DNA of 64,000 bases from Candidatus Spongiisociaceae bacterium (GCA_965202665.1 OZ241841.1:1735367-1799366); one strand, 5' to 3'; shown: positions 3,972 to 60,329, numbered from the stretch's first letter. Translations and numbers: made by a program. Notes: generated by a model from the letters alone, not told the origin.

Positions 3972-4021
3972 ATTCCGCTCCTCGCTCCAGGCCCAAAACA
4001 ATATGCTAGGCTCCGGGTAGT

Positions 4022-8451: not shown

Positions 8452-9196
8452 TGACAAGCAAAAGCCTCGTGAGAGGATAAGGATTCCTACGCCCAAGGAG
8501 TTAGACGAGTCCGCTACCGGTGGACAGTCGGAACAGGATGAGCCTCAGGAGCAAAAGGGCGGTCGTGCCCGGTTCCGGCGGATCCGGATGCGGATGAGGG
8601 GAGGTGTGGGGCGGAACAAGAAAGTGCTAAAGGCTCCTCGACCTGATGTAGAGACAGTAGGGGAAGGTCCTCCGGATGGAAAAGACCCAGGAGATGTCGA
8701 GCCAGGTTTTATCGTCCCCTTATCTGAGCGGGTAATAGGGGATGAAGGTGGTCAGATACAAGAAGAGGCTGTTCTTCCGAGGCAGATACCGGGACGGATC
8801 CAGCCGTTCAAGGACGAGTTTAGCGAAGAGGATAAACAAGAGGATTCTTCTAGATCGCGTGTCCGTGCTGTCAAATTCTCACCTAAGATTAAGAAAAGGA
8901 AAGAGGAACCGGTTCCTGATGATGATGCAAAGAGGCCCAAGAGTCGTGAGGAGATAGCTCGGGATTTAGCTAGTCGTAATGCTCAAGAAAATGGTCATGA
9001 TATAGGTGACTTTTTCAAGCAGGTTCGCCCAGATCGCACTAAGCACTTTACAGCTACATGTAGAAAATGTGGTTTGGATATCATAGCTGTGGTGGAGCTT
9101 GATGATTATCAGGTAAAAGGACTTCCAGGAGTTATCGGGAAGGCTAAAAACAAAAGATGTACAGAAGAAGTTAAGAATAGAGGAGTCGGTCTTTAG
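8444..9196 (+). CDS. highly charged (K/R/E/D-rich) hypothetical protein with C-terminal Cys cluster (possible zinc ribbon)
   Basis: The start MSDDKQ at 8444 overlaps the Hsp70-like stop by 8 nt. About 250 aa of low-complexity charged sequence precede a C-terminal CRKCG...(26 aa)...C. Low GC. Last gene of the island. Confidence 0.5.
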   Translation: MSDDKQKPRERIRIPTPKELDESATGGQSEQDEPQEQKGGRARFRRIRMRMRGGVGRNKKVLKAPRPDVETVGEGPPDGKDPGDVEPGFIVPLSERVIGDEGGQIQEEAVLPRQIPGRIQPFKDEFSEEDKQEDSSRSRVRAVKFSPKIKKRKEEPVPDDDAKRPKSREEIARDLASRNAQENGHDIGDFFKQVRPDRTKHFTATCRKCGLDIIAVVELDDYQVKGLPGVIGKAKNKRCTEEVKNRGVGL

Positions 9197-22928: not shown

Positions 22929-22941
22929 TGGAACCGGGGGG
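22929..22941. repeat. poly-G homopolymer immediately downstream of the SDR gene stop
   Basis: 13 consecutive G residues. Confidence 0.5.
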
Positions 22942-22948
22942 GGGGGGG

Positions 22949-35630: not shown

Positions 35631-35636
35631 CTTAAC

Positions 35637-35673
35637 AGGAGGAGCCTCCCCCGCTCAGCGGGGGAGGCCTCCT
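35637..35673. other. conserved 3'-UTR hairpin of the surface-protein cassettes (copy 1 of 3)
   Basis: GGAGGAGCCTCCCCCGCTCAGCGGGGGAGGCCTCC has an 11-bp perfect stem. It recurs at 44353-44389 and 44965-45002, each 20-25 nt after a cassette stop codon. Confidence 0.5.
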
Positions 35674-35697
35674 GGCGTGTTGGGTTGCGTGAAAGGC

Positions 35698-36522
35698 TTA
35701 TCGGGTGATCTGGTAAACAGTCAGCAACCGAGGACTGCTCCCCATAGGCGCGTCGTCAACCGTGCCCTCTTCCCTTATACCGGAGTACAGGGCACCAGAT
35801 GTTTTGTCGTAGGTGGTCTGCCATCCCAGACGGGCGTTGACCCGGGGACCCAGGAACTCTTCGTCCGGGGTGCTGTCGGTAGCCCATCCGGTTGCGGGCT
35901 TCGTGAAGGTCACCACCGAACCCCGGAAGTCGCCTTCCTGTCGATAATGACGACCGGCCGCGATCTCCGAACCGTCGCTTTTGATGGCGACGTACTGGCC
36001 GAACACATCCTGATTTCTGGGAGATGATACGGTCAGATTAAATCCGGCGGTAGCCGCAATCGAATCAGCATGTTGGGCGTGTAAAACCCCCCAGCCGTCC
36101 GCATGGTCAGGCTTAACGTACACGCGCATCGAACCGGGCACGTTAGCCTGAGCCTGGAAGTGGTTGGAGATGACGAGGGTGTTTCCATCCTCGGAGAGGG
36201 CCACGTACTTGCCAAACTCATTGTAGGCGGGTTGCGCTAAGCGGTTAGCCCATTTGGCATGGCCATCTGCATGGGTGGCGTCACCGATATCCGTCCAACC
36301 ACCAGCGGGCTTGACATACAAGAATACCAATCCTAGACAGACACCGGAAGAAAGACTGCAGTGGGTGGAGGCGATCGTGTCCCCATCTCCGTCGATGGCA
36401 ATGGACCGCTCGTTGTTCCAACCAGTGCCGACAAACAACACATGAGTGTCGGCATCGGTGTGATCGTTATCGTCATCCCAATTACCGGCCGTGGGATTCG
36501 CGGGTTTTTCGTATACCAACAC
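35698..36522 (-). pseudogene. 3' (C-terminal FG-GAP/beta-propeller) portion of a surface-protein cassette, separated from its 5' part by the IS481 insertion
   Basis: Homologous to the C-termini of the 40750 and 45026 proteins (..SPRNQDVFGQYVAIKSDGSEIAAGRHYRQEGDFRGSVVTF..LTVYQITR). The ORF begins right at the IS481 left end. Confidence 0.6.
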
Positions 36523-36536
36523 TGCCCCGCTGCTAT

Positions 36537-37629
36537 CGCTAGCTGTACTTGGCCAGGACGTTGGTGACGGTTTGGTTGTTGCATAAGTGAAGACCTCCTG
36601 GTGTTATGGGGAGTGAAAGCACCCTATAGCACGGGAGGAGGTCTTCAGGGATGCATGGTAACGCGAGGTCGTCGCCTTTGGGACGTTTGGGGATGGTGTT
36701 GCGGGTGATAGAAGAAGGGGAACCGGTAGCGCGGGTGGCTCGGGGGATGGGCCTGTCCCGGCAGTGCGTGTCCAAGTGGGTGCGCCGCTACCGGGAAGAA
36801 GGCCAAGCCGGTTTGGAAGACCGGTCGTCTCGGCCGCGTTGTTCCCCTATGCGTACCAGCCCGGAGGTGGAAGAGCTGGTGCTGCGGGCGCGGCGGCGGT
36901 TGCGGGCGGGGCCCGCTCGGTTGTCGGCGTTTACGGGGGTGCCGGAGCGGACGATCAGCCGTATCCTCCGCCGCCATGGAGTGTTGCGTCTGTGGGAATG
37001 CGACCCGCTGACCGGCGAACCGCTCAAGTCCCCTCCCGGGCCGGTGGTGCGGTATGAACGGGACAGGCCTGGTGAGTTGCTGCATATGGATGTTAAGAAG
37101 CTTTCTTCCATACCGCCCGGCGGGGGATGGAAGGTACACGGCCGGGGCAACGCCCCCGCCAGCGGAGCGGGATGGACTTTTGTGCACTCTGTCGTGGACG
37201 ACTACACCCGCCTCGCCTACTCCGAAACGCTATCAGACGAGAAAGGAACCACCGTCGCCGCGTTCACCGCCCGCGCCCTCAACCACTTCCGCCAACTAGG
37301 CATAACCCACATCGCGGAGATCATGACCGACAACCACTGGAGCTACACCCGCAGCCGCCTATTCTCTTCCCTGCTCGCCCAGCACGACATCCGTCATATC
37401 ACGATCAGACCGTATCATCCCCAGCAGAACGGCAAAGTGGAACGATACAACCAAACCCTCAAACGAGAATGGGCCAACTCCCAATCCTGGCCCGACAACC
37501 AAACCCGAAACCAAGCCCTCCGCCACTGGCTCCACTACTACAATAACCACCGGCCCCACTACAGCCTCGGAGGCAAACCACCAACCTCCAGACTGTAACC
37601 AACCTATTGGCCATGTACAGCTAGCCGGT
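36537..37629 (+). mobile_element. intact IS481-family insertion sequence
   Basis: Imperfect terminal inverted repeats GCTAGCTGTACTTGGCCA / TGGCCATGTACAGCTAGC. Flanked by a 7-bp direct repeat GCTGCTA (36529-36535 and 37630-37636). One transposase ORF. Confidence 0.8.
36651..37598 (+). CDS. IS481-family transposase (DDE integrase core)
   Basis: N-terminal HTH (ARGMGLSRQCVSKWVRRYREEG) and rve-domain DDE core (HMDVKK...TDNHWSY...YHPQQNGKVERYNQT). Confidence 0.9.
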   Translation: MHGNARSSPLGRLGMVLRVIEEGEPVARVARGMGLSRQCVSKWVRRYREEGQAGLEDRSSRPRCSPMRTSPEVEELVLRARRRLRAGPARLSAFTGVPERTISRILRRHGVLRLWECDPLTGEPLKSPPGPVVRYERDRPGELLHMDVKKLSSIPPGGGWKVHGRGNAPASGAGWTFVHSVVDDYTRLAYSETLSDEKGTTVAAFTARALNHFRQLGITHIAEIMTDNHWSYTRSRLFSSLLAQHDIRHITIRPYHPQQNGKVERYNQTLKREWANSQSWPDNQTRNQALRHWLHYYNNHRPHYSLGGKPPTSRL

Positions 37630-37636
37630 GCTGCTA

Positions 37637-39715
37637 CTGCGATGGTGGAGCCGTCGGAGGATATGGCAACCCCCTCCCCGAAACCATGGTTGAAGGGGTT
37701 GGTAGCAGACGGTTCTAGGGTGGCGTCTAGCGACCAAGTGCCATTGCTTTGACGGGTGTAGACATAGACTTTTTTGAGTCCTTCTCGGCTTCCGACTACT
37801 ACCGTGTCGCCGCTGATGTCCACATCCCACCCGAAGTAACCATTTTGCATGATGGTTGGGGGGGTGAGTTTGACGATGGCGCTGGCGGCGGTGTTCATCC
37901 CGTTGGGGTAGATGTACACCATCCCCGCCCTAGTACGCGTCACGTCATCTGCAGCATCGTTGTTGCCCATGTCGTCTACAACGCTTTCGTAAGAGGCTCC
38001 GACGACTATTACTCCGTTGTCGGCTGCTACGGCTTGCCCGTAGCGGGCGATGGCCCCGGCCCTGGCCCCGTCGGGGTGGTTGAGGCTGGGCCATTCCTCC
38101 TGCAAAGCGAAGGTGCTGACTTTGCCCGCTTCGTCCTGGTAGGCGGTTACTTTCAGGTGAGCCCCCGCCGGGTCGGCGTCCTCCGCTAAGGGTTTCTCGA
38201 ACTCGGCCATCACGGTGGGTCCGTCGAAGTTGGAGAACTGGTCGTTGGCGTCGTATTTGACCAGCATCAGTTTCTCCTCAGCGGCTACTACCAGCTGGTC
38301 GTTGTCGGGGTCTTTCACCAGGATGCGGCCGGTGAACGGCGCCCCGTCCGGTTCCTCCACCCAGTAATGGTAGACACGAGCCTCATGGGAGTTCAGATCA
38401 ATGTCGACGCCGTCGTTTTCAGGCCGATCTTCGCTACCGTCCGCTACTCCCACCACCTCGCTGAAGGTGGCCCAGATGGTTTCGATGACGCTGTCGGTGC
38501 TGTCGTAGTTGTAACCGAGGTTGGCCCGGCCGTCCCGTCCGGTGGTCCGCGTATACCGGCCCGTACCCGACAGCGTACGCTTCCCGCCGGATGAGCCGAC
38601 GGTGATACCGGCGGGCGCGGTGGAACCCACCCCCAAAATAACGGAGCAATCCGCGTCCTCATCTTTGGCCTTGGTGCACAAAGAGTCGGAAAGGAAACTG
38701 ATCCGTTTGCCGCGTACTGGGTCGCCGAACTGGTCGGTCAGTGTGGCCGTGACCGTGTTGCCGGCCCCTTGGCCTTCGTCCGACGCCAGAACGAACTCGT
38801 TGCGGGATGTGACCGTCAGCGTGGCCGGCCTCGGCGCTTCGTCCGACCAGCTGTAGGTGTCGGAGGAGAAGTCGCTTCCGTCCTCGTTTTTGAACGGCAA
38901 CCCGGCCGGCGGGTTGGTCAACGTCAACGTCACCGTCGCGCTGTCGCCGGTGTTGGTGCTGGGATCGGTTTGGGTGAATTCCAAAACGATTTTCCCGTCG
39001 GCGTCGGTCGTCATGCTGTTGGTGGAGGACGTGGTGTTGTCCCCCACCGTAGTGCTCTGCGCGACGGTTACCCGTTTGCCTTTGTCGGCTACGGCTTTGT
39101 CGTCCGGGTCGGCGATTTGGATGGTGACGGTGACGGTTTCCCCGAACTTGGAGCGGGTCTGCCCTTCCTCCAAGTTGTCGGTCACCAAAGTTTGGGTGGC
39201 CGCTTTGGAGAACCCGACGGTCAGTTGGGCGCGGGTGGTGTCATCGGAGTCGAACTTGTCGCCCCGGTCGCCGGTCCAGGCCCACACCGTCGCGTCCGCG
39301 TCCGTGATCTGCAAGGACAAATCGGTGAGGTCCCCCGACGCGTCGGTGGTGCTGTCCCCCAAATCCACCTCGCACGCCGTCTGCCCCACTTGCCCCACCC
39401 GATTCACATTCGCCGTAACGCACGCCCCGTCGTCCCCGAACGCCTCATCCGCGTCAGCGGAACGGAACACGTCCACCGACGCGTCCTGCACCGGCTGGAA
39501 GTTCACATCCCGCACCGACACAATCAACGGCACGCCCTGCGCCCCCAGCACCATATCCTGCTCGCTCTGAATCGACACCCCCGCCGGACGGGCGATGGTA
39601 TGCGCAAACGCCCGGGTGATGAACGACGCCGAATACATCGGAGCGAAATCAATGTCCTCCTCCTTACCATGCGTCCCCACCGCACCCGGAGGAGAAACCC
39701 CCAACCGAACATCAA
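37637..39715 (-). pseudogene. surface-protein cassette fragment (Ig-like middle plus start of propeller); lacks signal peptide/SLH region and is 3'-truncated by IS481
   Basis: Near-identical to the 45026-48565 protein from GVSPPGAVGTHG through ...SLNHPDGA. The SLH-domain segment is deleted (MYSA|SFITRAFAHT). The far 5' end is fused to an IS481 fragment. Confidence 0.65.
38100..39700. repeat. about 1.6 kb near-exact repeat (direct copy at ~46358-47958; inverted copy within 40801-42415)
   Basis: Identical translated ORFs appear on the track: 38857-39570(+) = 47115-47828(+) = 41538-42251(-), and 38367-38594 = 46625-46852. Confidence 0.8.
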
Positions 39716-40060
39716 GCGGGCGCACCGCCACCGGCAGGAGAGGAAGACCGGTCTGGGAAGACCGGTCATCGCGGCCGCGCGTTCCCCGGGCGTGCGCCAC
39801 CCCAGCGACGGAAGAAGAACAGGTGTTACGCACGCGGCGGGCCTTCCCGAGCGGGTTGCCGACGTCGATGGGCAGCCGGGGAGCTGGCTATCAACCGCAT
39901 CCTCCGCCGCGATGGGAAACGCTACTCTGCAGGAATCCGATCAGCTGACCGGCGAGCCGCTCAGAACCAGTCCCGGGCGGATGGTGCGGCATGAGCGCGG
40001 CAGGCCGGGAAAGTCGCCGCACAGGAACGTTGACAACCGTCTTGTTTTGAACCCCTTCAC
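39715..40060 (+). mobile_element. 5'-truncated, degenerate IS481 transposase-gene fragment
   Basis: About 80% nucleotide identity to 36758-37100 of the intact IS481 (..CGCCGCTACCGGGAAGAAGG..). Frames are broken. Confidence 0.5.
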
Positions 40061-40632
40061 CGGCTCGCGGTGCCCGCGCTGAATGAAACCACCACCCGGA
40101 TTTGAAATCGACGAACAGATGGCGAGGCGGCGGACAGGCGGATAGCCGACTGTCGATGAAGCTGTCCTCCGTCCCCAACTGGAAAATGCCTACCGGAAGG
40201 CCGTTCGCATCCCAGCCCCTCGTCAGACCGCGCAAAGCCCGCTTCCGTCGTCATCCGCAGTTCGTCCAGTCGTCTGCCCCGCTTCGCCGCGGGGCGACGA
40301 GGCGGGTGAGAACTTGGCGGGAGTCTGGCCGCCCTCCTTAATACATGGGACCCGCTCTCCGCTCCGAAGTGCCGGCTCATCCATCTCGCAACTGAGCAAA
40401 CGCCCGCTCCCCGCTTGTTGGAACCGAAACGCGGCCGAGCGAACCTACCGCACCGTTCTTGGGCCGCCGATGTTTGCGCCGGGCGGCCGGCGGGCCGGCG
40501 GGAGGCGTCGGCGCCGGTTGGGATGGCGTTGGAGAGCCCGGCGCGGCGTGCGGTTTTGCCGTCCCGGCCAGCGGCCGCGACCGGCTTCTCGGGCCGGGCC
40601 GAAAATCGTTTTAAGAAATTTCCGATTTTGAC

Positions 40633-40660
40633 TTGACAAGTTTTTTGGGGACGCTAATGT
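40633..40660 (+). promoter_or_regulatory. candidate sigma-70-type promoter of the only intact surface-protein gene
   Basis: TTGACA (40633-38), 16-nt spacer, TAATGT (40655-60). RBS GGAAGGA lies 10 nt before the ATG at 40750. Confidence 0.4.
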
Positions 40661-40749
40661 ATCGCGTGTTGAGGCGTAGGCCCCGGTATTGCCCTCCGGT
40701 AGCCAGCGTGTTAGGCAAACGAAAAATGGGCTTGGAAGGAGTAGTCGTG

Positions 40750-43700
40750 ATGGCGAAAGTGTCGGGTCGGGTTTGGATGGTGGGTCTTTTAGTGTTGGGT
40801 TTGGTGGTGAGTTTGTTGGGGGTTTCTCCTCCGGGTGCGGTGGGGACGCATGGGGAGGAGGAGGACATTGATTTCGCTCCCATGTATTCGGCGTGCGTGG
40901 GGCGGGCGACGGATTCGGCCGGTTTTGAGGACACGGCGGGCATCGGCGCGGAGGAGGCGATTGATTGCTTGTTCCATTATGGGATCACGAAAGGCCGGTC
41001 GGAGACCATGTACGCTCCGTCGGAGTCGGTGCTGCGGTGGCAGATGGCCCTGTTTTTGGCCCGGGCGTCGATGGCGGCGGGGATCGTGTTGGACAACCCG
41101 GCTGAGGATCAGGGGTTCACGGACATCAGCGCGGTGTCGGAAGAGGCCCAAAACGCCATCAACGGTTTAGCCAAAGAAGGGATCATGCCCGGCACGTCCG
41201 CGACGACGTTCAGCCCGAATTCGTCAGTGAACCGGGGTTCCATGGCGATGCTGCTGGACGCGTTCCTTTCCAAGGCCACTCCGGGGACGGGGGCGTTCGG
41301 GGAAGCGACGGAGAAGTACGCGGATGTAAAAGCCGACAACTTCAACGTGTTCACGGATGTGAACACGGTGTCGCTGAACACCTACAACGCCATATACCGC
41401 ATTTACGAGCTGGGGGTCACGAAAGGGGTGGCGGAACATCAGTTCAACCCGGCCGGGCTGGTAACGCGGGGGCAGATGGCGTCGTTCATCACCCGGGCGT
41501 TTGCTCATACCATCGCCCGTCCGGCGGGGGTGTCGATTCAGAGCGAGCAGGATATGGTGCTGGGGGCGCAGGGCGTGCCGTTGATTGTGTCGGTGCGGGA
41601 TGTGAACTTCCAGCCGGTGCAGGACGCGTCGGTGGACGTGTTCCGTTCCGCTGACGCGGATGAGGCGTTCGGGGACGACGGGGCGTGCGTTACGGCGAAT
41701 GTGAATCGGGTGGGGCAAGTGGGGCAGACGGCGTGCGAGGTGGATTTGGGGGACAGCACCACCGACGCGTCGGGGGACCTCACCGATTTGTCCTTGCAGA
41801 TCACGGACGCGGACGCGACGGTGTGGGCCTGGACCGGCGACCGGGGCGACAAGTTCGACTCCGATGACACCACCCGCGCCCAACTGACCGTCGGGTTCTC
41901 CAAAGCGGCCACCCAAACTTTGGTGACCGACAACTTGGAGGAAGGGCAGACCCGCTCCAAGTTCGGGGAAACCGTCACCGTCACCATCCAAATCGCCGAC
42001 CCGGACGACAAAGCCGTAGCCGACAAAGGCAAACGGGTAACCGTCGCGCAGAGCACTACGGTGGGGGACAACACCACGTCCTCCACCAACAGCATGACGA
42101 CCGACGCCGACGGGAAAATCGTTTTGGAATTCACCCAAACCGATCCCAGCACCAACACCGGCGACAGCGCGACGGTGACGTTGACGTTGACCAACCCGCC
42201 GGCCGGGTTGCCGTTCAAAAACGAGGACGGAAGCGACTTCTCCTCCGACACCTACAGCTGGTCGGACGAAGCGCCGAGGCCGGCCACGCTGACGGTCACA
42301 TCCCGCAACGAGTTCGTTCTGGCGTCGGACGAAGGCCAAGGGGCCGGCAACACGGTCACGGCCACACTGACCGACCAGTTCGGCGACCCAGTACGCGGCA
42401 AACGGATCACGTTCACCTCCGACACTCTGTGCGTGAAGAAGCAACCGACTGACGCGGAGTGCGTCACGCACGGCGTGGGCGCCAACAACTACATGCGCAC
42501 CACCGGACGGGACGGCCGGGCCAACCTCGGTTACAACTACGACAACACGAACAGCGTCATCGAGGCCATCCGGGCCACCTACACCTACGTCGGCACCGAG
42601 GGAGTGCGGGGAGTGGTCGACACCACCGACCCCCTTCCCATGGGCGACCCGAAGGACGAGACCGTGTTGACGTCTGAGCCCGTTCACCATTACTGGGTGG
42701 AGGAACCGACCGGGGACCCGTTCACCGGGCGCATCTTGGTGAAAGACCCCGACAACGACCAGGTGGTGGTAGCCGCTGAAGAGAAACTGATGCTGGTCAA
42801 ATACGACGGGAACGACCAGTTCAACCTCGAGTCGGGAACCACCATCTTCTCCGAGTTCGAGAAACTGCTGGAAGAAAACGCCGACCCGGCGGGAGCCCAC
42901 CTGAAGGTAACCTCCTACGAAGACGCCGCCGCCGACGTTAGCGTCTTCACCGTACAAGAAGAATGGCCCGGCCTAGACCACCCCGCAGGCGCCAACGGCC
43001 GCTTCAACTACCCAATCGTGGTAGCCGACAACGGCATAATCGTCGTCGGGCATTACCTTGAGACGGTGACGTCGGGCGGCACCCAGATGCCACATGCGGG
43101 CGCAGTTTACATTTATCCGAACGGGATGGACACCGCCGCGAACAATATCGTGAAGCTGACCGCCCCCACTCCTTTCGCTTGCGGGTATTTCGGATATGAT
43201 GTGGACATCACCGACAACACGGTGGTAGTCGGCAACGCGTTCGTCGGCATCGACTCCGGTAGGTTGCGTCCGGTGGTGGGATTGGGCGAGGGTCAAACTT
43301 GCGCTATGTCCTCCTCCTATGAGAAAAAGGTCTACGTGTACACCCGCACAGATAGCGGATGGCCCATCGACGCCACATTTACCAGCGTCGATGCCCAGAA
43401 CAACACTGGTTTCGGGGAGGGGGTGGCTATCTCCTCCGATGGTTCCACCATCGCGGTGGTAGGACCCGGCTCGAATAATAATGGGGCCGTGTTCGTGTTC
43501 GAGAAGCCCCAAACCGGAGGCTGGGTGGACAACACCACCGCCGGTCAAGGCCGTCTGAGGGGCGGTGGCGGCGATGGGGTCGGATGGATTCGAACCGAAC
43601 GGTCTGTCGCTATCTCCGGGGACGGTTCGGTAATCGCCGCTGGCGGTTGCAACAACGAAGGCAGCACCGGCACGTGCGGAGGGTGGCTGTATGTGTACGA

Positions 43701-44328
43701 GAAGGACCCCACCGCCAGCTGGGACGGGGTCACCAAAGCCGATGGCGACGCCCGCTTCCTGGCCTATGAGGGAACGGGTGATCCTAATGTCGCTACCGAT
43801 TACGGTCAAGGGCGGCAATCTAGACATGAGTTCGCCAAGTACGTGGCGCTCTCCGACGACGGAACCGTGTTGGTCGCCTCCGGGCACTACCGAGCTGAGG
43901 CTGAAAAGCCGGGGGAAGTGTACGTGTGGAACAAACCGGAAACAGGCGGCTGGAGAGTGCATCACATCGATCGGCGGCTACCCGGCATGACCCCCAACGT
44001 TGGCTTCAAGTTGAAGGTCTCGTCTCCCCGTAACAGCGACGTGTTCGGACAATACATCGCCGTAACCGGCGACGGTTCGGAGATAGCCGCTTCCCGCCAC
44101 TACCGGCAGGAAGGCACCTTCCGGGGTTCGGTGGTGACCTTCAAGCGTCCCGCCGACGGCGCCTGGGCAAACGACAGCACACCCGACGACGAGTACTTGG
44201 GTCCCTATGTCCGAGCCCACCTGGGGTGGCAGACCACCTACGACAAATCCAACAGTGATCTATACACCGCGGTGTCCGCGGCCAATGATATGGAAAGCCC
44301 GCTTTCCATCTTCAAGATCACCCGATAA
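40750..44328 (+). CDS. large S-layer-homology (3x SLH) domain surface protein with bacterial Ig-like (Big) domains and C-terminal FG-GAP beta-propeller repeats; intact expression copy
   Basis: Signal peptide MAKVSGRVWMVGLLVLGLVV. Three SLH repeats (FxD...AIxxL...GIxxG...F.P...V.RGQMA.FL.RA). Ig-like T/V-rich domains. FGEGVAISSDGSTIAV-type FG-GAP repeats. 1192 aa. Confidence 0.8.
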   Translation: MAKVSGRVWMVGLLVLGLVVSLLGVSPPGAVGTHGEEEDIDFAPMYSACVGRATDSAGFEDTAGIGAEEAIDCLFHYGITKGRSETMYAPSESVLRWQMALFLARASMAAGIVLDNPAEDQGFTDISAVSEEAQNAINGLAKEGIMPGTSATTFSPNSSVNRGSMAMLLDAFLSKATPGTGAFGEATEKYADVKADNFNVFTDVNTVSLNTYNAIYRIYELGVTKGVAEHQFNPAGLVTRGQMASFITRAFAHTIARPAGVSIQSEQDMVLGAQGVPLIVSVRDVNFQPVQDASVDVFRSADADEAFGDDGACVTANVNRVGQVGQTACEVDLGDSTTDASGDLTDLSLQITDADATVWAWTGDRGDKFDSDDTTRAQLTVGFSKAATQTLVTDNLEEGQTRSKFGETVTVTIQIADPDDKAVADKGKRVTVAQSTTVGDNTTSSTNSMTTDADGKIVLEFTQTDPSTNTGDSATVTLTLTNPPAGLPFKNEDGSDFSSDTYSWSDEAPRPATLTVTSRNEFVLASDEGQGAGNTVTATLTDQFGDPVRGKRITFTSDTLCVKKQPTDAECVTHGVGANNYMRTTGRDGRANLGYNYDNTNSVIEAIRATYTYVGTEGVRGVVDTTDPLPMGDPKDETVLTSEPVHHYWVEEPTGDPFTGRILVKDPDNDQVVVAAEEKLMLVKYDGNDQFNLESGTTIFSEFEKLLEENADPAGAHLKVTSYEDAAADVSVFTVQEEWPGLDHPAGANGRFNYPIVVADNGIIVVGHYLETVTSGGTQMPHAGAVYIYPNGMDTAANNIVKLTAPTPFACGYFGYDVDITDNTVVVGNAFVGIDSGRLRPVVGLGEGQTCAMSSSYEKKVYVYTRTDSGWPIDATFTSVDAQNNTGFGEGVAISSDGSTIAVVGPGSNNNGAVFVFEKPQTGGWVDNTTAGQGRLRGGGGDGVGWIRTERSVAISGDGSVIAAGGCNNEGSTGTCGGWLYVYEKDPTASWDGVTKADGDARFLAYEGTGDPNVATDYGQGRQSRHEFAKYVALSDDGTVLVASGHYRAEAEKPGEVYVWNKPETGGWRVHHIDRRLPGMTPNVGFKLKVSSPRNSDVFGQYIAVTGDGSEIAASRHYRQEGTFRGSVVTFKRPADGAWANDSTPDDEYLGPYVRAHLGWQTTYDKSNSDLYTAVSAANDMESPLSIFKITR
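40801..42415. repeat. about 1.6 kb segment identical, in inverted orientation, to 46954-48568 (5' conserved region of the surface-protein genes)
   Basis: Track ORFs 40835-41170(+) = 48196-48531(-) and 41109-41381(-) = 47985-48257(+) are identical at the amino-acid level. Confidence 0.8.
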
Positions 44329-44352
44329 GCCTTTCACGCAACCCAACACGCC

Positions 44353-44389
44353 AGGAGGCCTCCCCCGCTTAGCGGGGGAGGCTCCTCCT
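44353..44389. other. conserved cassette 3'-UTR hairpin (copy 2, inverted)
   Basis: AGGAGGCCTCCCCCGCTTAGCGGGGGAGGCTCCTCCT. Confidence 0.5.
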
Positions 44390-44397
44390 GTTAAAGC

Positions 44398-44957
44398 GGC
44401 TCTTGTTTTAGGGGGGAGTTAGAGGTTAAGGGGGTTGCGTTTGGGGCGGGGGGCGAGCGTTTTATTGGGGCGGGGTGGGGCGGCGGCCGGTCAGCTAACG
44501 TTCATAGCCGTGCCGGACGGTCGCCCCGGAGCCGTCCAGCCTTTCCAGCGACGGAACTGCGTATTTGCGGGTCAGCCCCATCGCGTCCCGGAAGGCGGCC
44601 ACCGTGAACCGCTCCGGCAAGTCGCCCAAGCGGGCCAGAAGTTCTTCAATCTGTTCGGGCAGATAGACCAGATGGTCGGAGATCCGCACCAGCCGGCCTT
44701 CCCGCACCAGGATGTGCACCGGGTTCCGGGTCCGCCCGCAGTTCCGCCACCCGGGGGGCTTGCAGCCCTGCCCCCCGCAACTCCCGCTGTATGCGTTCCC
44801 GCTTGGCGTTTTCCCCCTCTCGGAAGGCGAGGGCGAAACCGGCCTCCGCCACCGCCGAACCCCTTGCTGAAGATCGTCCCTCGTATTTAGAGGCGATGAC
44901 AGCCAGTAGCGACCCCCGCCCTAAACCAGCGCAACCCCCTAATCCCACGCGGAGAGC
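44398..44957. mobile_element. inverted-repeat-flanked segment carrying a duplicated selB 3' fragment (MITE-like/ISL3-derived)
   Basis: IR-like GGCTCTTGTTTTAGGGGGGAGTTAGAGGTTAAGGGGGTTGCGTTTGG at 44398-44444, with its inverted counterpart at 44911-44957. The interior 44440-44860 is about 90% identical to 51690-52140 (selB C-terminus plus downstream). Confidence 0.55.
44495..44900 (-). pseudogene. selB C-terminal fragment (duplicate)
   Basis: Encodes ..HILVREGRLVRISDHLVYLPEQIEELLARLGDLPERFTVAAFRDAMGLTRKYAVP.LE.LDGSGATVRHG.ER, matching the winged-helix C-terminus of the full selB at 51745. Confidence 0.7.
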
Positions 44958-44964
44958 CCTTAAC

Positions 44965-45002
44965 AGGAGGAGCCTCCCCCGCTGAGCGGGGGAGGCCTCC
45001 TG
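44965..45002. other. conserved cassette 3'-UTR hairpin (copy 3)
   Basis: AGGAGGAGCCTCCCCCGCTGAGCGGGGGAGGCCTCC, 24 nt downstream of the stop of the 45026 gene. Confidence 0.5.
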
Positions 45003-45025
45003 GCGTGTTGGGTTGCGTGAAAGGC

Positions 45026-48000
45026 TTATCGGGTGATCTGGTAAACAGTCAGCAACGTGCCGGCTTCGACAGACTCTCGTATCCCGGAGTACAGGGTGCC
45101 GGAGGTCTTGTCGTAGGTGGTCGCCCATCCCATACGGGCGTTAACCCGGGGACCCAAGAACTCTTCGTCCGGTGTGCTGTCGGAGGCCCATCCAGTAGCG
45201 GGCTTCGTGAATGTCACCACCGAACCCCGGAAGTCGCCTTCCTGCCGATAATGACGACCGGACGCGATCTCCGAACCGTCGCCTTTGATGGCAATGTACT
45301 GGCCGAACACATCCTGGTTTCTGGGGGACGACACGGTCAGATCAAATCCTGTTGTCGCTTCCTCCGAATCCGCTTGAGTGTCAACGTGCCAACTTTCCCA
45401 GCTCGTGCCGGGCCTGACGTACACACGTATCGTCCCGGGCACATTTCTAGGACTAGTCTGACCCTGGTAGTGGTTGGAGACGACCAGGGTTGTCCCGTCA
45501 TCGGTGAGAGCCAAGTACTTGGCAAACTGAGTTCCGCTACCACCCATTCCGCGATTGCGGATGCGAGCACCGTCGGTTCCTGAACCTCCGTCGGACTGGT
45601 CCGCCCAGCCGCCAGCAGGCTTCTTATACACGTATATCCATCCTCCGGTATTGCCAGCGGCGATCGTCTCCCCATCCCCGGAGATAGCAATGGCCCGTTC
45701 GTTGCTATAGCCATTCCCGATTCTCAGTTCAGGTTCATCAGCGTGAGTGGCATCGGCAGCCCAGCCCGTGCCGGGCTCTTCATATACCACTATCCTTCCT
45801 TCGTTGCCCTGGTCGTCAGCCCCGATCACCGCAATGGTGGAACCGTCGTCGGATATGGCAACTCCCTCTCCGAACCCCTGGCCGAAATCGGCATTCTCAG
45901 TACTCGGATTCGGGGACAATATCTTAGTAGTGGTGGTCGGCCAACCAGCACTCTCCTTTTCATAAATGTAGACCTTCCGCAACCCTCTTTGCCCCGCGGG
46001 CAACTGATGGTGGTATCGGGTTCCGACGACGATGGTGTCGCCTGCGATGTCCACGTCGTGTCCGAAGAAGCCGTTGGCTACGATATCCGTGGCTGGGGGG
46101 GTAAGTTTGACGATGTTGCCGGCGGCGGTGTTCATCCCGTTGGGGTAGATGTACACCATCCCCGCGTTAGTACGCGTCACGTCATCAGTTTCCATGCAAG
46201 TGGCCAGAGCGTCGCGGCAGGAGCCCATTTGCACCACAATGGTTTCTCTGGGGGCTCCGACGACTATTACTCCGTTGTCGGCTGCTACCGCCTCCCCAAA
46301 TCTGGCGGCGGCTCCGTCTTCTGCCCCGTCGGGGTGGTTGAGGCTGGGCCATTCCTCCTGCAAAGCGAAGGTGCTGACTTTGCCCGCTTCGTCCTGGTAG
46401 GCGGTTACTTTCAGGTGAGCCCCCGCCGGGTCGGCGTCCTCCGCTAAGGGTTTCTCGAACTCGGCCATCACGGTGGGTCCGTCGAAGTTGGAGAACTGGT
46501 CGTTGGCGTCGTATTTGACCAGCATCAGTTTCTCCTCAGCGGCTACTACCAGCTGGTCGTTGTCGGGGTCTTTCACCAGGATGCGGCCGGTGAACGGCGC
46601 CCCGTCCGGTTCCTCCACCCAGTAATGGTAGACACGAGCCTCATGGGAGTTCAGATCAATGTCGACGCCGTCGTTTTCAGGCCGATCTTCGCTACCGTCC
46701 GCTACTCCCACCACCTCGCTGAAGGTGGCCCAGATGGTTTCGATGACGCTGTCGGTGCTGTCGTAGTTGTAACCGAGGTTGGCCCGGCCGTCCCGTCCGG
46801 TGGTCCGCGTATACCGGCCCGTACCCGACAGCGTACGCTTCCCGCCGGATGAGCCGACGGTGATACCGGCGGGCGCGGTGGAACCCACCCCCAAAATAAC
46901 GGAGCAATCCGCGTCCTCATCTTTGGCCTTGGTGCACAAAGAGTCGGAAAGGAAACTGATCCGTTTGCCGCGTACTGGGTCGCCGAACTGGTCGGTCAGT
47001 GTGGCCGTGACCGTGTTGCCGGCCCCTTGGCCTTCGTCCGACGCCAGAACGAACTCGTTGCGGGATGTGACCGTCAGCGTGGCCGGCCTCGGCGCTTCGT
47101 CCGACCAGCTGTAGGTGTCGGAGGAGAAGTCGCTTCCGTCCTCGTTTTTGAACGGCAACCCGGCCGGCGGGTTGGTCAACGTCAACGTCACCGTCGCGCT
47201 GTCGCCGGTGTTGGTGCTGGGATCGGTTTGGGTGAATTCCAAAACGATTTTCCCGTCGGCGTCGGTCGTCATGCTGTTGGTGGAGGACGTGGTGTTGTCC
47301 CCCACCGTAGTGCTCTGCGCGACGGTTACCCGTTTGCCTTTGTCGGCTACGGCTTTGTCGTCCGGGTCGGCGATTTGGATGGTGACGGTGACGGTTTCCC
47401 CGAACTTGGAGCGGGTCTGCCCTTCCTCCAAGTTGTCGGTCACCAAAGTTTGGGTGGCCGCTTTGGAGAACCCGACGGTCAGTTGGGCGCGGGTGGTGTC
47501 ATCGGAGTCGAACTTGTCGCCCCGGTCGCCGGTCCAGGCCCACACCGTCGCGTCCGCGTCCGTGATCTGCAAGGACAAATCGGTGAGGTCCCCCGACGCG
47601 TCGGTGGTGCTGTCCCCCAAATCCACCTCGCACGCCGTCTGCCCCACTTGCCCCACCCGATTCACATTCGCCGTAACGCACGCCCCGTCGTCCCCGAACG
47701 CCTCATCCGCGTCAGCGGAACGGAACACGTCCACCGACGCGTCCTGCACCGGCTGGAAGTTCACATCCCGCACCGACACAATCAACGGCACGCCCTGCGC
47801 CCCCAGCACCATATCCTGCTCGCTCTGAATCGACACCCCCGCCGGACGGGCGATGGTATGAGCAAACGCCCGGGTGATGAACGACGCCATCTGCCCCCGC
47901 GTTACCAGCCCGGCCGGGTTGAACTGATGTTCCGCCACCCCTTTCGTGACCCCCAGCTCGTAAATGCGGTATATGGCGTTGTAGGTGTTCAGCGACACCG

Positions 48001-48570
48001 TGTTCACATCCGTGAACACGTTGAAGTTGTCGGCTTTTACATCCGCGTACTTCTCCGTCGCTTCCCCGAACGCCCCCGTCCCCGGAGTGGCCTTGGAAAG
48101 GAACGCGTCCAGCAGCATCGCCATGGAACCCCGGTTCACTGACGAATTCGGGCTGAACGTCGTCGCGGACGTGCCGGGCATGATCCCTTCTTTGGCTAAA
48201 CCGTTGATGGCGTTTTGGGCCTCTTCCGACACCGCGCTGATGTCCGTGAACCCCTGATCCTCAGCCGGGTTGTCCAACACGATCCCCGCCGCCATCGACG
48301 CCCGGGCCAAAAACAGGGCCATCTGCCACCGCAGCACCGACTCCGACGGAGCGTACATGGTCTCCGACCGGCCTTTCGTGATCCCATAATGGAACAAGCA
48401 ATCAATCGCCTCCTCCGCGCCGATGCCCGCCGTGTCCTCAAAACCGGCCGAATCCGTCGCCCGCCCCACGCACGCCGAATACATGGGAGCGAAATCAATG
48501 TCCTCCTCCTCCCCATGCGTCCCCACCGCACCCGGAGGAGAAACCCCCAACAAACTCACCACCAAACCGG
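45026..48570 (-). CDS. SLH-domain surface-protein paralog with a distinct C-terminal propeller variant; 5' end (signal peptide/start) disrupted by a poly-G tract and IS481 fragment
   Basis: Identical to the 40750 protein from VVSLLGVSPPGAVGTHG through ..PVRGKRI, then divergent. Ends ..LLTVYQITR. There is no start codon, RBS or promoter; the sequence runs into GGGGGGGGGGGGGCGGCGGGGGGGGGGGGG at 48571-48601. Confidence 0.65.
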
Positions 48571-48601
48571 GGGGGGGGGGGGCGGCGGGGGGGGGGGGGG
48601 G
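48571..48601. repeat. poly-G homopolymer tract (probable sequencing/assembly artefact)
   Basis: A run of 14 G, then CGGC, then 13 G. It sits exactly at the junction between the surface-protein 5' region and the IS481 fragment. Confidence 0.7.
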
Positions 48602-49210
48602 CCGCTACCGGGAGGAAGGTGAGGCTGGTTTGGGGAAGACCCGTCGTCGCGGCCGCGTGCCCCCGGCCGCGCGCCACCCCAGCGGTAGAAGAAGAACAAC
48701 AGGCGTTACGCGCGCGGCGGGCGTTCCGGACGGCCAGGCCGGTTATCCGACGTTGATAGGGCGCCGGGAAGACGGCTATCAACCGCACCCTCCGCCGCTA
48801 TAGGAACATTGCTCAGTAGGAACGCCATCAGCCGACCAGCAAGCCGCTCAGAACCAGTCCCAGACGGGTGATGCTGCACGAACGCAGCAAGTCGGGAAAA
48901 TCGCCGCTGGACCCGTTGGAGCCAGTGGCGGAGGGCTTGGTTTCGGGTTTGGTTGTATCGCTCTACTTTGCCGTTCTGCTGGGGATGATAGGGTTTGATC
49001 GTGATATGACGGATGCCGTGCTGGGAGAGCAGGGAAGCGAATGCTCGGCTGCGGGTGTAGCTCCAGTGGTTGTCGGTCATGATCTCCGCGATGTGGGTTT
49101 ATGCCTAGTTGGTGGAAGTGGTGGAGGGCGCGGGCGGTGAACGCGGCGACGGTGGTTCCTTTCCCGTCCGGCAACGGCTCGGAGTAGGCGAGGCGGGTGT
49201 AGTCGTCCAC
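48601..49210. mobile_element. rearranged degenerate IS481 copy (5'-truncated N-terminal part on + strand, C-terminal part inverted)
   Basis: 48601-48900 is about 80% identical to IS481 36773-37070. Minus-strand ORFs encode MDDYTRLAYSE...GTTVAAFTARAL and MTDNHWSYTRSR...YHPQQNGKVERYNQT. Confidence 0.55.
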
Positions 49211-49420
49211 AGTCCCAGCCTGAATTAGGATGTCCAGGTTTCCAGGCCATCAGCAGGCACCATCATCCAGGCTGTATATGACCTCTGGTTCAGCCTGTGC
49301 CTGGTCAGGCTGATAGTGGTCTGTGGCATACACAGGCAACAGGTATCTGACCTGCTGTTTGTTGGATGTAGCAGGTTTCTGCTGTGGATGGCCGCAATGA
49401 GGGGGGCTAGGCTCTGCTGG

Positions 49421-49912
49421 TTAGCATCGTGTCATAAAAGCAGTATCGCTTGTTCTTATGTTAAAAATATATGGGTCAGATAGGCCAGTGGGGGATATTT
49501 CTAGAGCAGCATCTGACGCTGCTAGCGTATCAAAGTTTTGGTCTCCATCGGGTATAAAATCTAAACGCATCCAACGGCATCGATAACTACCTGTTCGATA
49601 TCGTCCAGGTTCAATATAACGGATATGTGTCTGATTATCATACCAAATCTCACCATTTGAATTGCGTATATTCTGAATATTATCACCGCCAGGGTTAGCC
49701 CTTACAAAAAAGATTTGGGTTCCACTTTGAAAATCAAATTGAACATAACCTGGTATTTGTTGTTTCACCCTTTGTCGCCATTGGTTCCCTGCGACTATGA
49801 ATGAGGCGAATTCAGCTCTGGTTATTCCATCATCAAACGCCCTTTGTAGTACTTTCAATAGACCATCTATCCTGCTCCTGGATGGCCTGCTGGATGGCCC
49901 GCACGGTGGCAA
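49421..49912 (-). CDS. hypothetical protein in low-GC patch
   Basis: ORF in a roughly 35% GC segment. Confidence 0.3.
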   Translation of the reverse strand: MPPCGPSSRPSRSRIDGLLKVLQRAFDDGITRAEFASFIVAGNQWRQRVKQQIPGYVQFDFQSGTQIFFVRANPGGDNIQNIRNSNGEIWYDNQTHIRYIEPGRYRTGSYRCRWMRLDFIPDGDQNFDTLAASDAALEISPTGLSDPYIFNIRTSDTAFMTRC

Positions 49913-49959
49913 ACTGGATTGCCATTTGGATGTTCTGCTGGTCAGACATCAGGCCTGTC

Positions 49960-50184
49960 CTATTCTGCTATCAGAGCATTCTGGATAGTCAGGATGACGG
50001 CAGGGAAACCGCAATCCTGGATGGACTGGTTGGCCTGCTGAACATCAGGTTCTGCCTGCTGGATACCTGGATGGTCTGACAGAGCCTGGACAGCATCATC
50101 CAAATCCTGGACTGACCATTTCAGTTTGTAATACAGAGCATCCAGTTGTTTTTGAATACCAGTGTCAGGGTTCTGTTCTGCCAT
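49960..50184 (-). CDS. small acidic hypothetical protein
   Basis: MAEQNPDTGIQKQLDALYYKL...; its N-terminus resembles the ORFs at 50368-50700 and 17383-17616. Confidence 0.3.
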   Translation of the reverse strand: MAEQNPDTGIQKQLDALYYKLKWSVQDLDDAVQALSDHPGIQQAEPDVQQANQSIQDCGFPAVILTIQNALIAE

Positions 50185-50367
50185 CAGCCTATCCTGATTA
50201 TCTGCTCTGCCTGGTTCTGCGTCAGGCCTGTGCGGTCAGTGCTATCAGTCCATCATCAGGCAGGACAGGAATAGTCAGGCAATTACCTGACATCCGAACC
50301 TGACGGAGCAGACCCTTGGTCTGGTCAGAGCCTGATAGATGTGGCCTGACAGACTGGTCTGGCGCCA

Positions 50368-50700
50368 TCAGGCAGGCTCCATCCAGGCAGGGTCAGATTT
50401 CACCATTGCCACTACAGCGTTCCAGGCCATCAGGACAGACACTATTTCATCCCTGACTTCCAGCAGATTTTCAAATGCCTGATCGACAGATTTCCATTGG
50501 TTATGGAACATCAGGGCAGTGTCTGTGTCCAGACCAGCAGGCAGGACAGGAAATGGCAGAACAGGCTCGGGTTCATCAGTCAGGCCTGCCTTCTGTATGA
50601 CCTGTCTCATAACCTTGTCCAGACTGGCACCTGCCACAATGGACTGGATGATGTCCAGCAGGTCTGCCCTGACCTGCTCCGCCGTGTTCTGCTCTGTCAT
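50368..50700 (-). CDS. small acidic hypothetical protein
   Basis: MTEQNTAEQVRADLLDIIQSIV...; paralog-like to the neighbouring small ORF. Confidence 0.3.
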   Translation of the reverse strand: MTEQNTAEQVRADLLDIIQSIVAGASLDKVMRQVIQKAGLTDEPEPVLPFPVLPAGLDTDTALMFHNQWKSVDQAFENLLEVRDEIVSVLMAWNAVVAMVKSDPAWMEPA

Positions 50701-50977
50701 TGTTCCCTTCCATCTCGGGTGCTTACCCTATTTATACATCAGGCTGATATGATTTGTCCAGTCCATCAGGCTCTGGTGGTGCCGTAAATTGGCATAACCG
50801 CAGGTCATAGGCGGTTTCTGCTAACGGCAAATGTTTCACGGCAGGGTCTGTTCTGCCGCTTACCACAGGTCTGTCAGGTCAGGTTCCAGGCAGATGTCAT
50901 CAGGCCTGGACATTCAGCAGTCTGCCATTCCAGGCTGGATGTGGTCAGTCCGTTCCTGTCAGGTCTGGTGGAATAGT

Positions 50978-51678
50978 GGCTCTTCGGATTTGAGGGGGGA
51001 GTAGGGGGTTAGGGGGGTTGCGTTGGTTTTGGGGTGGGGTCCTCCATAATCGGGGTTGTAAACCTATTCCCGAGGGTTAGGAGGACCCCTGTGGTGACCG
51101 ATTATAAGCGGGTGTGTAGGGTTTTGGCGGGGGTTGGAGGTTGAGGTAGTGGGGGCCGGAGGAGACGACCGGGGGCCTGGCGGTGGGGGTGCGGTTGGTG
51201 GGGAGGCCGCGGTGCGGGGTGTTGAGCAAGGGTTGGAGGAGGGCTCGGTTGGCGGATCAGCCCTGTTTCGGCCGGGCGGTGATTTTGGAATGGTCCAAAC
51301 GGCGGCGGCGGTGTCCTGATGCGGGGTGCGGGGTGGGGTCGTTTGCGGAGCAGGACCCGCGGATAGCCCCGGTGCGGGCCCGGTTGACTTCTCGGGCGGC
51401 TAGGTGGGCGACGCAGCAGGTGGGCCGGGGGCGGACGGCGGCGGGGGTGGCGGAGGAGATTGGTTGCGACTGGCGTACCGTAGCGAAGGAGGTGAACCGG
51501 TGGGGGGAAGCCCTGCTGGAAGCCGACCGGGATCGGGCGGGGATAGTGGAGGCTTAGGGTTGGACGAGACCCTGTTCCTCCGTCAGGGCCCTTGGCGGCG
51601 GAGGATGTGGATAACCGCGGCGGTGGACATCCGCAACCGTCGGCTGATCGACGTTTTCCCAGGTAAAGACGCTAAAGG
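50978..51678 (+). mobile_element. ISL3-family element remnant (left terminal repeat + frameshifted N-terminal half of transposase)
   Basis: Terminal motif GGCTCTTCGGATTTGAGGGGGG at 50978. Transposase fragments encode C..C zinc-ribbon CPDAGCGV, RTVAKEVNRW and LGLDETLFLRQGPWRRRMWITAAVDIRNRRLIDVFPGKDA, the ISL3 signature region. Interrupted at 51679 by another copy of the terminal motif. Confidence 0.6.
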
Positions 51679-51694
51679 GGTTCTTCGCGTTTGA
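51183..51694 (+). pseudogene. ISL3-family transposase, N-terminal ~190 residues, frameshifted and truncated
   Basis: Two overlapping frames (51183-51557 and 51404-51694) together reconstruct an ISL3 transposase N-terminus. Confidence 0.6.
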
Positions 51695-51731
51695 GGGGGG
51701 AGTTGGAGGTAAGGGGGTGACGCTGGTTTGG
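51679..51731 (+). repeat. ISL3-type terminal-repeat-like motif (copy 5), abutting the selB 3' end
   Basis: GGTTCTTCGCGTTTGAGGGGGGAGTTGGAGGTAAGGGGGTGACGCTGGTTTGG. Confidence 0.45.
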
Positions 51732-51744
51732 GGCGGGGGCGCGT

Positions 51745-60108: not shown

Positions 60109-60329
60109 AGAGCGCTCTTCGAGGGGACAACCTGAGCCCAATCAATCACCTTCCCAAAATAAAAAGGGCAAAACTGCTGGCGGTGGCGCGGGTTTGAGGA
60201 GTTTTTTTCGGCGCGAACAACCAGGGAGAAAGAGCACTGCCCGGCCCCGTTCCCCGACTTGCTTCCGCAACCGCCTTTTACCGCCCGCCCCGCACTTTCG
60301 GCTCCGCCGTCCAGTGTTTGGCGAACCAC
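60105..60329 (-). CDS. hypothetical small protein translationally coupled upstream of the HigA-like gene (candidate toxin partner)
   Basis: Its stop overlaps the HigA-like ATG. No recognizable RelE/HigB motifs, so the call is weak. Confidence 0.25.
   Translation of the reverse strand: MVRQTLDGGAESAGRAVKGGCGSKSGNGAGQCSFSLVVRAEKNSSNPRHRQQFCPFYFGKVIDWAQVVPSKSAL

Follow-up and report, generated by a model that had tools for sequence, protein, structure and literature searches.

Can a bacterium change the exposed part of a surface protein by recombination between gene copies that lie side by side on its chromosome? This question is raised by a locus at ~35.6-49.2 kb of a 64,000-nucleotide (64-kb) stretch of DNA from Candidatus Spongiisociaceae bacterium (GCA_965202665.1 OZ241841.1:1735367-1799366). 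We refer to the whole stretch as the window, and coordinates are positions in it unless another sequence is named. The locus is filled by a family of long open reading frames (ORFs) with SLH, Ig-like, and FG-GAP signatures. A reading made from the sequence alone (the sequence-only reading) had described four copies of such a gene, one with a promoter and three silent and partial, and had proposed that recombination among them varies the cell surface. Our analysis gives three genes, C (+), D (-), and BA (-). We propose that they form a locus with one expression site and two cassettes, at which general homologous recombination switches the heads of an SLH-anchored surface protein, and we put the probability of this reading at about 0.58. 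What we infer further is switching within a population, with its rate, its RecA dependence, and its biological benefit.

The locus was compared with L001, L002, L003, L004, and L088. L001 (2.76 Mb) was taken as a long-read assembly from its naming (383x coverage, 'ctg..x_l'), and L002 (SAMN12290235) and L004 (prefix 'PANK22-1 ... METAG-scaffold') were taken, also from their naming, as short-read metagenome scaffolds. L003 and L088 are independent long-read-type contigs from another sample, L088 being of low coverage. None of the sequences contains runs of N, L002 included.

Architecture of the three genes

The three genes share a conserved 5' region, which we call the arm. The arms of C and D are exactly identical over 1612 nt and inverted relative to each other (Table 1), in agreement with the ~1.6-kb inverted repeat of the sequence-only reading. 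The direct repeat described between D and the 5' part of BA is present as well, with one mismatch in 1566 nt (38065-39630 vs 46323-47888), and BA matches C over 932 nt (38699-39630). Exact identity on the kilobase scale cannot be due to chance. In the protein, the arms account for the anchor and the greater part of the stalk, and the variable part comprises the distal stalk and a propeller head. Variability begins at residue 555 between C and the other two genes and at about residue 747 between D and BA. Beyond this boundary, exact identity drops sharply to 40-60% amino-acid identity among the heads of C, D, and BA, and the synonymous divergence (dS) between C and D is ~1.0. No other retrieved protein is more than 60% identical to the D head (the last 432 residues), and for the C head the limit is 50% (closest ~49%), save for an orthologue in L002 with 98% identity. 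The variable parts all end in the same 80-nt block, which is 99% identical in the three genes and contains the last codons, the stop, and a 3'-untranslated region (3'-UTR) hairpin with a folding energy of -38.3 kcal/mol (z -4.36), so the common stop and hairpin noted earlier are confirmed.

The orientation of the genes creates two inverted pairs. C and D converge, with inverted arms of 1612 nt, and BA and C diverge, with inverted arms of 955 nt. The inversion geometry proposed for C and D thus holds, and it extends to the BA/C pair, which the sequence-only reading did not mention. The locus therefore combines what is found in a system of the sap type, named after the sap genes of Campylobacter fetus: paralogous surface-protein genes with conserved 5' regions (0.93-1.6 kb) and divergent 3' regions, oppositely oriented copies that flank a promoter-bearing segment, and, at the sequence level, a promoter and a translation start at C only.

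C is the only complete gene at the locus, as had been claimed. Its candidate promoter was called because the -35 and -10 boxes are conserved among paralogs, since a generic sigma-70 scan flagged no promoter upstream of any copy, C included. In three complete paralogs of a sister genome, the ATG is preceded at ~100 nt by the -35 box ACTTGACAA, which is followed after 15-16 nt by a TAnnnT -10 box, and the ribosome-binding sequence GGAAGGAG also recurs in paralogs. The exact promoter motif of C occurs once in the window. Its spacer is AGTTTTTTGGGGACGC, which contains no long homopolymer tract. With a promoter, a ribosome-binding site, an ATG, and a signal peptide (residues 1-32, MAKVSGRVWMVGLLVLGLVVSLLGVSPPGAVG), C alone appears equipped for expression, and it is presumably transcribed from the candidate promoter.

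The protein encoded by C matches the Pfam families SLH (E=1.4e-21) and FG-GAP_2 (E=3.8e-11), and FG-GAP_2 is also matched in D and in both parts of BA, termed B (5') and A (3'). An AlphaFold model of C (44 homologs, mean pLDDT 78, pTM 0.62) contains the signal peptide, a helical SLH region at residues ~45/50-255, a chain of beta-sandwiches at ~260-620, and an all-beta C-terminus of ~440 residues, in which the propeller head spans residues ~750-1192. The helical region of the model fits three SLH repeats. Foldseek searches with the model returned arrays of Ig/macroglobulin (MG) domains and the integrin alpha5 chain (TM 0.45 on the target, 534 columns); the former would correspond to the stalk and the latter to the C-terminal head. 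The protein thus has a Sec signal peptide at its N-terminus and, after it, a module of three SLH repeats, and both the Pfam repeats and the integrin alpha5 match point to an FG-GAP propeller. The product of C is, as predicted, an SLH-anchored surface protein, for which we claim no S-layer lattice.

D and BA are different. The identity between C and D begins at codon 17 of the C signal peptide, so D is without a start codon and the first 16 codons; it is nevertheless open for 1179 codons, with no stops or frameshifts. No start codon or signal peptide was found upstream of D or BA in any of the three frames, including the frames reached by poly-C slippage. These results bear out the earlier description of D as a copy with its own propeller and with neither start nor promoter. 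In BA, the SLH region has been removed by an in-frame deletion of ~582 nt with its junction at 39626-39630, in agreement with the missing SLH segment of the earlier note, and L002 has kept this SLH-less 5' end (P0001). The sequences upstream of D and BA are homologous to each other (78%) and consist partly of IS481-like transposase fragments.

BA is split by an insertion sequence (IS) of the IS481 family. Its transposase, of the IS481 DDE type, has a score of 312 bits against NCBIfam transpos_IS481 (cut-off 224) and matches Pfam rve and LZ_Tnp_IS481. The ends of the element are 44-nt imperfect inverted repeats (80% identical), and it is flanked by a 6-bp target duplication, GCTAGC (36538-36543 and 37620-37625). 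The site is empty in L001 and L002 and carries the same insertion in L088. Excision of 36544-37625 restores an uninterrupted BA ORF of 1017 codons, which can be aligned with C and D from one end to the other. The sequence-only reading had counted A as a separate propeller-only piece; we rejected A as an independent cassette, as it is the 3' end of B and the restored frame is continuous. Since A and B are halves of one gene, the locus has three genes and not four, and the silent partial paralogs number two instead of three, one of them currently broken by the IS element.

At the 5' boundary of D lies a double homopolymer tract, which the sequence-only reading had overlooked together with the IS remnants and the duplicated selB 3' fragment. 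The tract is conserved, and the lengths of its two runs vary between assemblies: they are 15/14 in the window, 14/13 in L003, and 12/13 in L001, and L004 has a single C12. In L001, an IS110-family element is inserted in this tract (L001 8442-8454 and 9930-9958). The + strand, which reads G14-CGGC-G15, is a possible G-quadruplex former. 

Exchange between the cassettes

If the cassettes recombine, their shared parts should carry traces of it. We compared the 932-nt stretch of the arm that is common to all three genes. The three copies of the window differ from each other by 0-1 nt. They differ from L001 by 10-11 nt and from L002 by 14-15 nt, and the L004 arm shows 36-42 differences (41-42 against the window copies). 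The arms have thus diverged by ~1-4% between strains and are identical within a genome, which indicates concerted evolution and supports the ongoing homogenisation claimed earlier (0-1 of 932 nt within the genome vs 10-42 between strains). The two arm copies of L002 are also mutually identical, which repeat collapse in a short-read assembly could cause as well. The three-cassette layout and a selB fragment between the cassettes are common to L002 and L004; therefore, the duplication predates the divergence of the strains and the arms have been homogenised since.

L001 has a different layout. It contains a single gene beside DUF2339, P0002, which joins the poly-C-bounded 5' end of D, the SLH region, and the stalk to the BA head. 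Judged by this junction, P0002 is the deletion product of an exchange between the direct repeats of D and BA. We considered L001 as an ancestral single-copy state and found this less likely, as its 5' end is the truncated, poly-C-bounded D type with no start and the three-cassette layout is present in the more distant PANK22-1 scaffolds.

L002 offers a candidate for the second kind of exchange. Its protein P0123 consists of the C signal peptide, SLH region, and stalk followed by the BA head, and P0001 joins the truncated, SLH-less 5' end of BA to the C head. Removal of the IS element and inversion of 39631-41477 give a window sequence that is colinear with L002 for 14.1 kb, whereas the native order matches L002 in separate pieces, the middle part being reversed. 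P0123 and C have identical upstream sequences over 200 nt. These observations are suggestive of L002 being the inversion isomer in which the promoter has been flipped. We note that L002 stops ~60 nt into the arm of the third copy, so the repeats limited its assembly.

Exact kilobase-long repeats are a classic source of misassembly, and the homopolymer tracts vary in length between assemblies, so we asked how far the locus itself could be an artefact of an assembler that collapsed or duplicated repeats. The contig L003, which derives from another sample, crosses the unique D flank, the whole 1.6-kb arm, the D head, the spacer, and the C head with 99.97% identity over 7.4 kb, and the IS insertion is found again in L088. 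This makes a collapse in assembly unlikely. The related strains moreover have the same cassettes with strain-specific substitutions, and runs of N are absent, so that we give an artefact almost no weight and take the repeats to be real.

The exchanges expected from this geometry can be listed. Recombination between C and BA (955-nt arms) would flip the 1.85-kb promoter segment and place the anchor and stalk before the BA head; as BA is split by the IS element, this flip would give a truncated product in the present strain. Recombination between C and D (1612-nt arms) would flip a 4.5-kb segment with both heads, after which the D head would follow the promoter. An exchange between D and BA, whose arms are direct repeats, would delete 8.3 kb, including the expression site. 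Conversion with no crossover would homogenise the arms, and it could copy heads, with the 80-nt 3' block serving as a second homology besides the 5' arm. The outcome would be a constant anchor and stalk with a changeable exposed head, and recognition by phages, the host, or ligands would be altered.

Inverted repeats of this kind would also be compatible with a site-specific inversion of the shufflon or Hin/Fim type, in which a dedicated recombinase acts at short sites inside the repeats, and poly-G/C tracts and IS-derived sequence do lie at the boundaries. We consider this very improbable. No serine or tyrosine recombinase or invertase gene was found in the flanks of the window (~15 kb on each side), where only IS transposases and their fragments are present, or in the gene tables of the relatives, and the repeats are kilobase-long coding sequences instead of short sites. 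An exchange driven by homology is in line with the deletion product of D x BA and with end-points of identity that differ between the pairs (42409 for C/D, 38065 for BA/D). The absence of a nearby recombinase, the length of the repeats, and these end-points make general homologous recombination the most likely mechanism.

The condition of the silent heads was assessed from the ratio of non-synonymous to synonymous substitution rates (dN/dS). Between strains, it is 0.18-0.36 for the heads, similar to the flanking genes (0.11-0.35), and 0.02-0.03 for the arms. The BA head, which is promoterless both in the window and in L001, has a dN/dS of 0.30 between the two, with 26.5 synonymous and 26.5 non-synonymous changes, against ~13 and 40 expected with no constraint (a rough estimate from site counts). 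The silent heads are under purifying selection.

This result bears on the main rival explanation, in which the locus is a decaying cluster of paralogs with no role in variation. A segmentally duplicated gene family would have been truncated and scrambled by IS481, IS110, and ISL3 elements, the arms would be kept identical by incidental conversion, the differences between strains would be incidental too, and D and BA would be pseudogenes. Decay is a real possibility, though we would not call it probable. D is intact throughout and BA is intact apart from the recent IS insertion, the heads are constrained in strains where they are promoterless, and strains that are 2-6% apart have retained the truncated 5' ends, among them the one with no SLH region. 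The sharp step at the end of the arms is that of cassette systems, and conversion of the arms is in itself recombination between the cassettes, from which inversion crossovers are mechanistically expected. On the other side, several intact family paralogs elsewhere could cover the function, and L001 carries fragments of ISL3 and IS481 in addition to the IS110 element in its poly-C tract.

Several further observations speak for decay or otherwise weigh against the switching that we propose. Transcription of C from its candidate promoter is a prediction from the sequence. BA is currently broken by IS481 in this strain, and the 5' ends of both cassettes adjoin IS debris. L001 has lost the expression site and retains only the promoterless hybrid. 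L002, the source of the only candidate inversion isomer, is apparently a short-read assembly, in which 955-nt identical inverted repeats can probably not be phased, so its orientation may be a choice of the assembler. The long-read-type contigs L003 and L088 show the window arrangement only; L088 stops at window position 38494, short of the arm, and the orientation of the promoter segment is not covered by it. The C/D inversion isomer was not found among the few assemblies of this species, and the protein cluster membership lists contain no hybrids of a C 5' part with a D head or a D 5' part with a C head. The purifying selection between strains could reflect expression before a recent silencing. 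The claim of recombinational variation is therefore borne out in part: the deletion product of L001 and the candidate inversion isomer of L002 speak for it, whereas the C/D isomer that the sequence-only reading had emphasised is missing and signs of decay are present.

A bolder version of our reading would see a programmed, high-frequency system of nested inversion and conversion in a non-pathogenic, sponge-associated symbiont of the Actinomycetota, which swaps the integrin-like head of its main surface protein within a host population as part of a wider contingency strategy that includes poly-G promoter spacers and a poly-C-switched restriction-modification enzyme. In this version, the G-rich double tract at the boundary of the silent cassette D could influence the points at which recombination begins or ends. 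We regard this version as doubtful. Switching of surface coats by recombination has been described mainly in a small number of cultured pathogens and in lactobacilli; if the switching proposed here is true, it would suggest that obligate or long-term animal symbionts, too, have a need to vary their exposed surface. The pressures could be phages, phagocytosis or recognition by the host, or the binding of different matrix ligands through the integrin-like head. The poly-G promoters of paralogs and the frameshifted restriction-modification gene may mean that contingency loci are general in this genome, and such loci bear on how stable symbiont populations stay diverse. The exchanges define three junction types, which could be counted in long-read metagenomes of sponge tissue.

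Setting of the locus and other features of the window

The features of the locus are collected in Table 1. Its G+C content is ~62%, vs ~66% for the window. One flank contains DUF2339, a two-component system, RNase H, and TetR, and the other an ISL3 fragment, SelB, SelA, FxsA, and NUDIX. The cassettes of L002, L003, and L004 are also separated by the selB fragment of ~470 nt that lies between the convergent C and D, and the fragment is a trace of the way in which the array of cassettes arose. The comparison of cassette content with related strains, suggested by the sequence-only reading, gives a three-cassette layout for L002 and L004 and the single hybrid for L001.

Table 1. Coordinates of the features at the locus, as positions in the window.
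Feature	Position	Strand	Description
Shared 3' block of BA	35632-35711	-	80 nt
Cassette BA, 3' part ('A')	35698-36543	-	End of the BA-type propeller head; the A ORF (35698-36522) is P0122
IS481-family element	36544-37619	+	Splits BA; transposase 36651-37598
Cassette BA, 5' part ('B')	37626-39705	-	Lacks a start and a signal peptide; in-frame loss of the SLH region
Predicted invertible segment	39631-41477		1.85 kb, promoter-bearing; flanked by inverted arms of 955 nt in BA and C (38676-39630 / 41478-42432)
IS481-like transposase fragment	39880-40020	+	Upstream of the truncated 5' end of BA; homologous to the region upstream of D
Candidate promoter of C	40633-40660	+	-35 TTGACA 40633-40638; 16-nt spacer; -10 TAATGT 40655-40660
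Ribosome-binding site of C	40734-40741	+	GGAAGGAG; 8 nt before the ATG at 40750
Gene C	40750-44328	+	ATG to stop; only complete gene at the locus; database protein P0133
Arm of C	40798-42409	+	Codes for SLH and stalk; exactly identical to the D arm, 1612 nt
C-type variable head module	42410-44314	+	From the protein alignment of C, D, and BA
Shared 3' block of C	44315-44394	+	Last codons, stop, and 3'-UTR hairpin (~44352-44390)
Duplicated selB 3' fragment	44392-44865	-	Separates convergent C and D; shares 90% identity with the 3' end of the genuine selB (51689-52144 / L001 6008-6482)
Shared 3' block of D	44960-45039	-	80 nt
Cassette D	45026-48565/48568	-	SLH and stalk identical to C; own head; database P0134/P0003
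Arm of D	46957-48568	-	Inverted relative to the C arm, direct relative to the BA arm
Double homopolymer tract at the D 5' boundary	48569-48601		G14-CGGC-G15 on the + strand; C15-GCCG-C14 read toward D
D upstream region	48602-49210		Promoterless; IS481-like transposase fragments in both orientations (self-BLAST vs the IS at 36544-37619)

The nearest named genomes, as judged by SelA (66-67% amino-acid identity), are metagenome-assembled genomes (MAGs) labelled Candidatus Spongiisocius or Spongiisociaceae, of the class Acidimicrobiia. By their names, these MAGs are sponge-associated. The ORFs A, B, and C are each the same as a database protein of one contig, and D clusters with P0134 of that contig. 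A literature search on the nearest named genus returned nothing. The surface-protein family has 664 detectable members, with several paralogs per genome. The sister genome mentioned above (L085) has three tandem complete paralogs whose 5' regions are 90-92% identical. A more distant relative, L087 (6068-19513, non-syntenic), has three complete paralogs in -/+/- order, as at the present locus; its genes b and c share a 2.7-kb inverted repeat that is 95% identical and begins ~100 nt upstream of the ATG, and gene b has kept the -10 box and not the -35 box. Inverted multi-copy loci may thus be a recurrent theme of the family. A lone paralog with no cassette layout was found in another genome (L086). 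The other family loci are ordinary complete genes with repeats that are 90-95% identical, so exact identity and 5' truncation are specific to the present locus. A scan of two large contig collections (genomes and metagenomes) with protein C gave no further relatives.

Paralogs in the sister genome and in L087 carry G11-G12 tracts in the 15-16-nt spacer between a -35 box TTGACA and a -10 box TAGCGT (L085 5828-5838, 9892-9902, and 13909-13919; L087 9767-9777 and 9842-9853). A homopolymer in the spacer between the -35 and -10 boxes is the classic design of promoter phase variation by slipped-strand mispairing. The family of surface proteins thus seems to be under regulation of the contingency type.

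Homopolymers are also found elsewhere in the window. An Eco57I-like (type IIG) restriction-modification/methylase gene at 60278-63195 (-) consists of two overlapping ORFs (61981-63195 and 60278-62110) split by a C16 tract at 62010-62025, and a change of +1 or -2 in this tract would give a single ORF of 971-972 codons. The gene is a candidate for a phase-variable restriction-modification enzyme, or else for a homopolymer sequencing error. A G13 homopolymer is located at 22936-22948. The 64 kb hold four G/C tracts of 13-16 nt, vs ~0.07 expected from base composition by a rough estimate.

Three other regions of the window were noted. A match to the Rfam family PYLIS_3, the pyrrolysine insertion element of mttB, lies at 21506-21605 (+) and scores 60.9 bits (gathering score 38), which points to a trimethylamine methyltransferase with pyrrolysine in this genome of the Acidimicrobiia. 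An island of ~43% G+C at ~4000-8500, in a genome of 66% G+C, encodes a 1025-residue SNF2/ResIII-type helicase (4022-7099) and, after it, an Hsp70-like ATPase (7096-8451); it was probably acquired horizontally and is possibly a defence module. Next to the locus, 49211-50975 and 51183-51557 are absent from L001, which has other IS copies there. This stretch has a G+C content of 57-60% and holds a 163-residue ORF with no family match (49421-49912) and an N-terminal fragment of an ISL3-type transposase.

Comparison with known switching systems

In C. fetus sap, a single promoter lies on an invertible segment between opposed sapA homologs with conserved 5' regions, and inversion is largely RecA-dependent. 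This inversion system was reportedly described by Dworkin and Blaser in 1996-97 and by Tu et al. in 2003. The present locus resembles it in having paralogous coat genes with a conserved 5' anchor region, divergent 3' regions, and one promoter, in the opposed genes that flank a promoter segment, in the geometric possibility of nested inversions, and in the lack of a dedicated invertase gene. The proteins differ, as ours is predicted to be Sec-secreted and SLH-anchored, with an Ig-like stalk and an FG-GAP propeller, and the Sap proteins are type-I-secreted and bound to lipopolysaccharide. The host of sap is a proteobacterial pathogen, whereas the present locus belongs to an uncultured, Gram-positive-type bacterium of the Acidimicrobiia related to sponge symbionts. 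There are two silent cassettes here vs ~8 in sap, the arms measure 1-1.6 kb vs ~0.6 kb, and the silent copies are 5'-truncated, one of them with no anchor. PMC3887049 mentions the sap locus with its promoter and lists Tu et al. (2003) as reference 46.

Another close parallel is the inversion of slpA and slpB in Lactobacillus acidophilus, reportedly described by Boot et al. in 1996. There too, an opposed pair of surface-layer genes in a Gram-positive bacterium has one expressed and one silent, promoterless member, and a few kilobases invert by way of shared homology. The protein family and the anchoring are different, and the present locus additionally has a third cassette, a direct repeat that permits deletion, and IS elements.

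The pilE/pilS system of Neisseria, vlsE of Borrelia, and msp2 of Anaplasma likewise combine one expression site with promoterless, 5'-truncated donors, variable segments bracketed by conserved 5' and 3' blocks, and concerted evolution of the conserved parts. The G-rich tract at the D boundary superficially recalls the G4 element of pilE; it lies, however, at a silent cassette and not at the expression site. In contrast to these systems, the present locus has two donors, each a whole domain of ~600 codons, instead of many short mosaic segments. Its inverted geometry favours reciprocal inversion, and the heads give no evidence of mosaicism. The slipped-strand promoters of Neisseria porA and opc have the same design as the paralogs with G11-G12 spacer tracts. 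The promoter of C has no such long tract, and any variation at this locus would come from recombination and not from slippage. Taken with these comparisons, the type of mechanism is probably already known, and what is new would be the phylum, the habitat, and the proteins.

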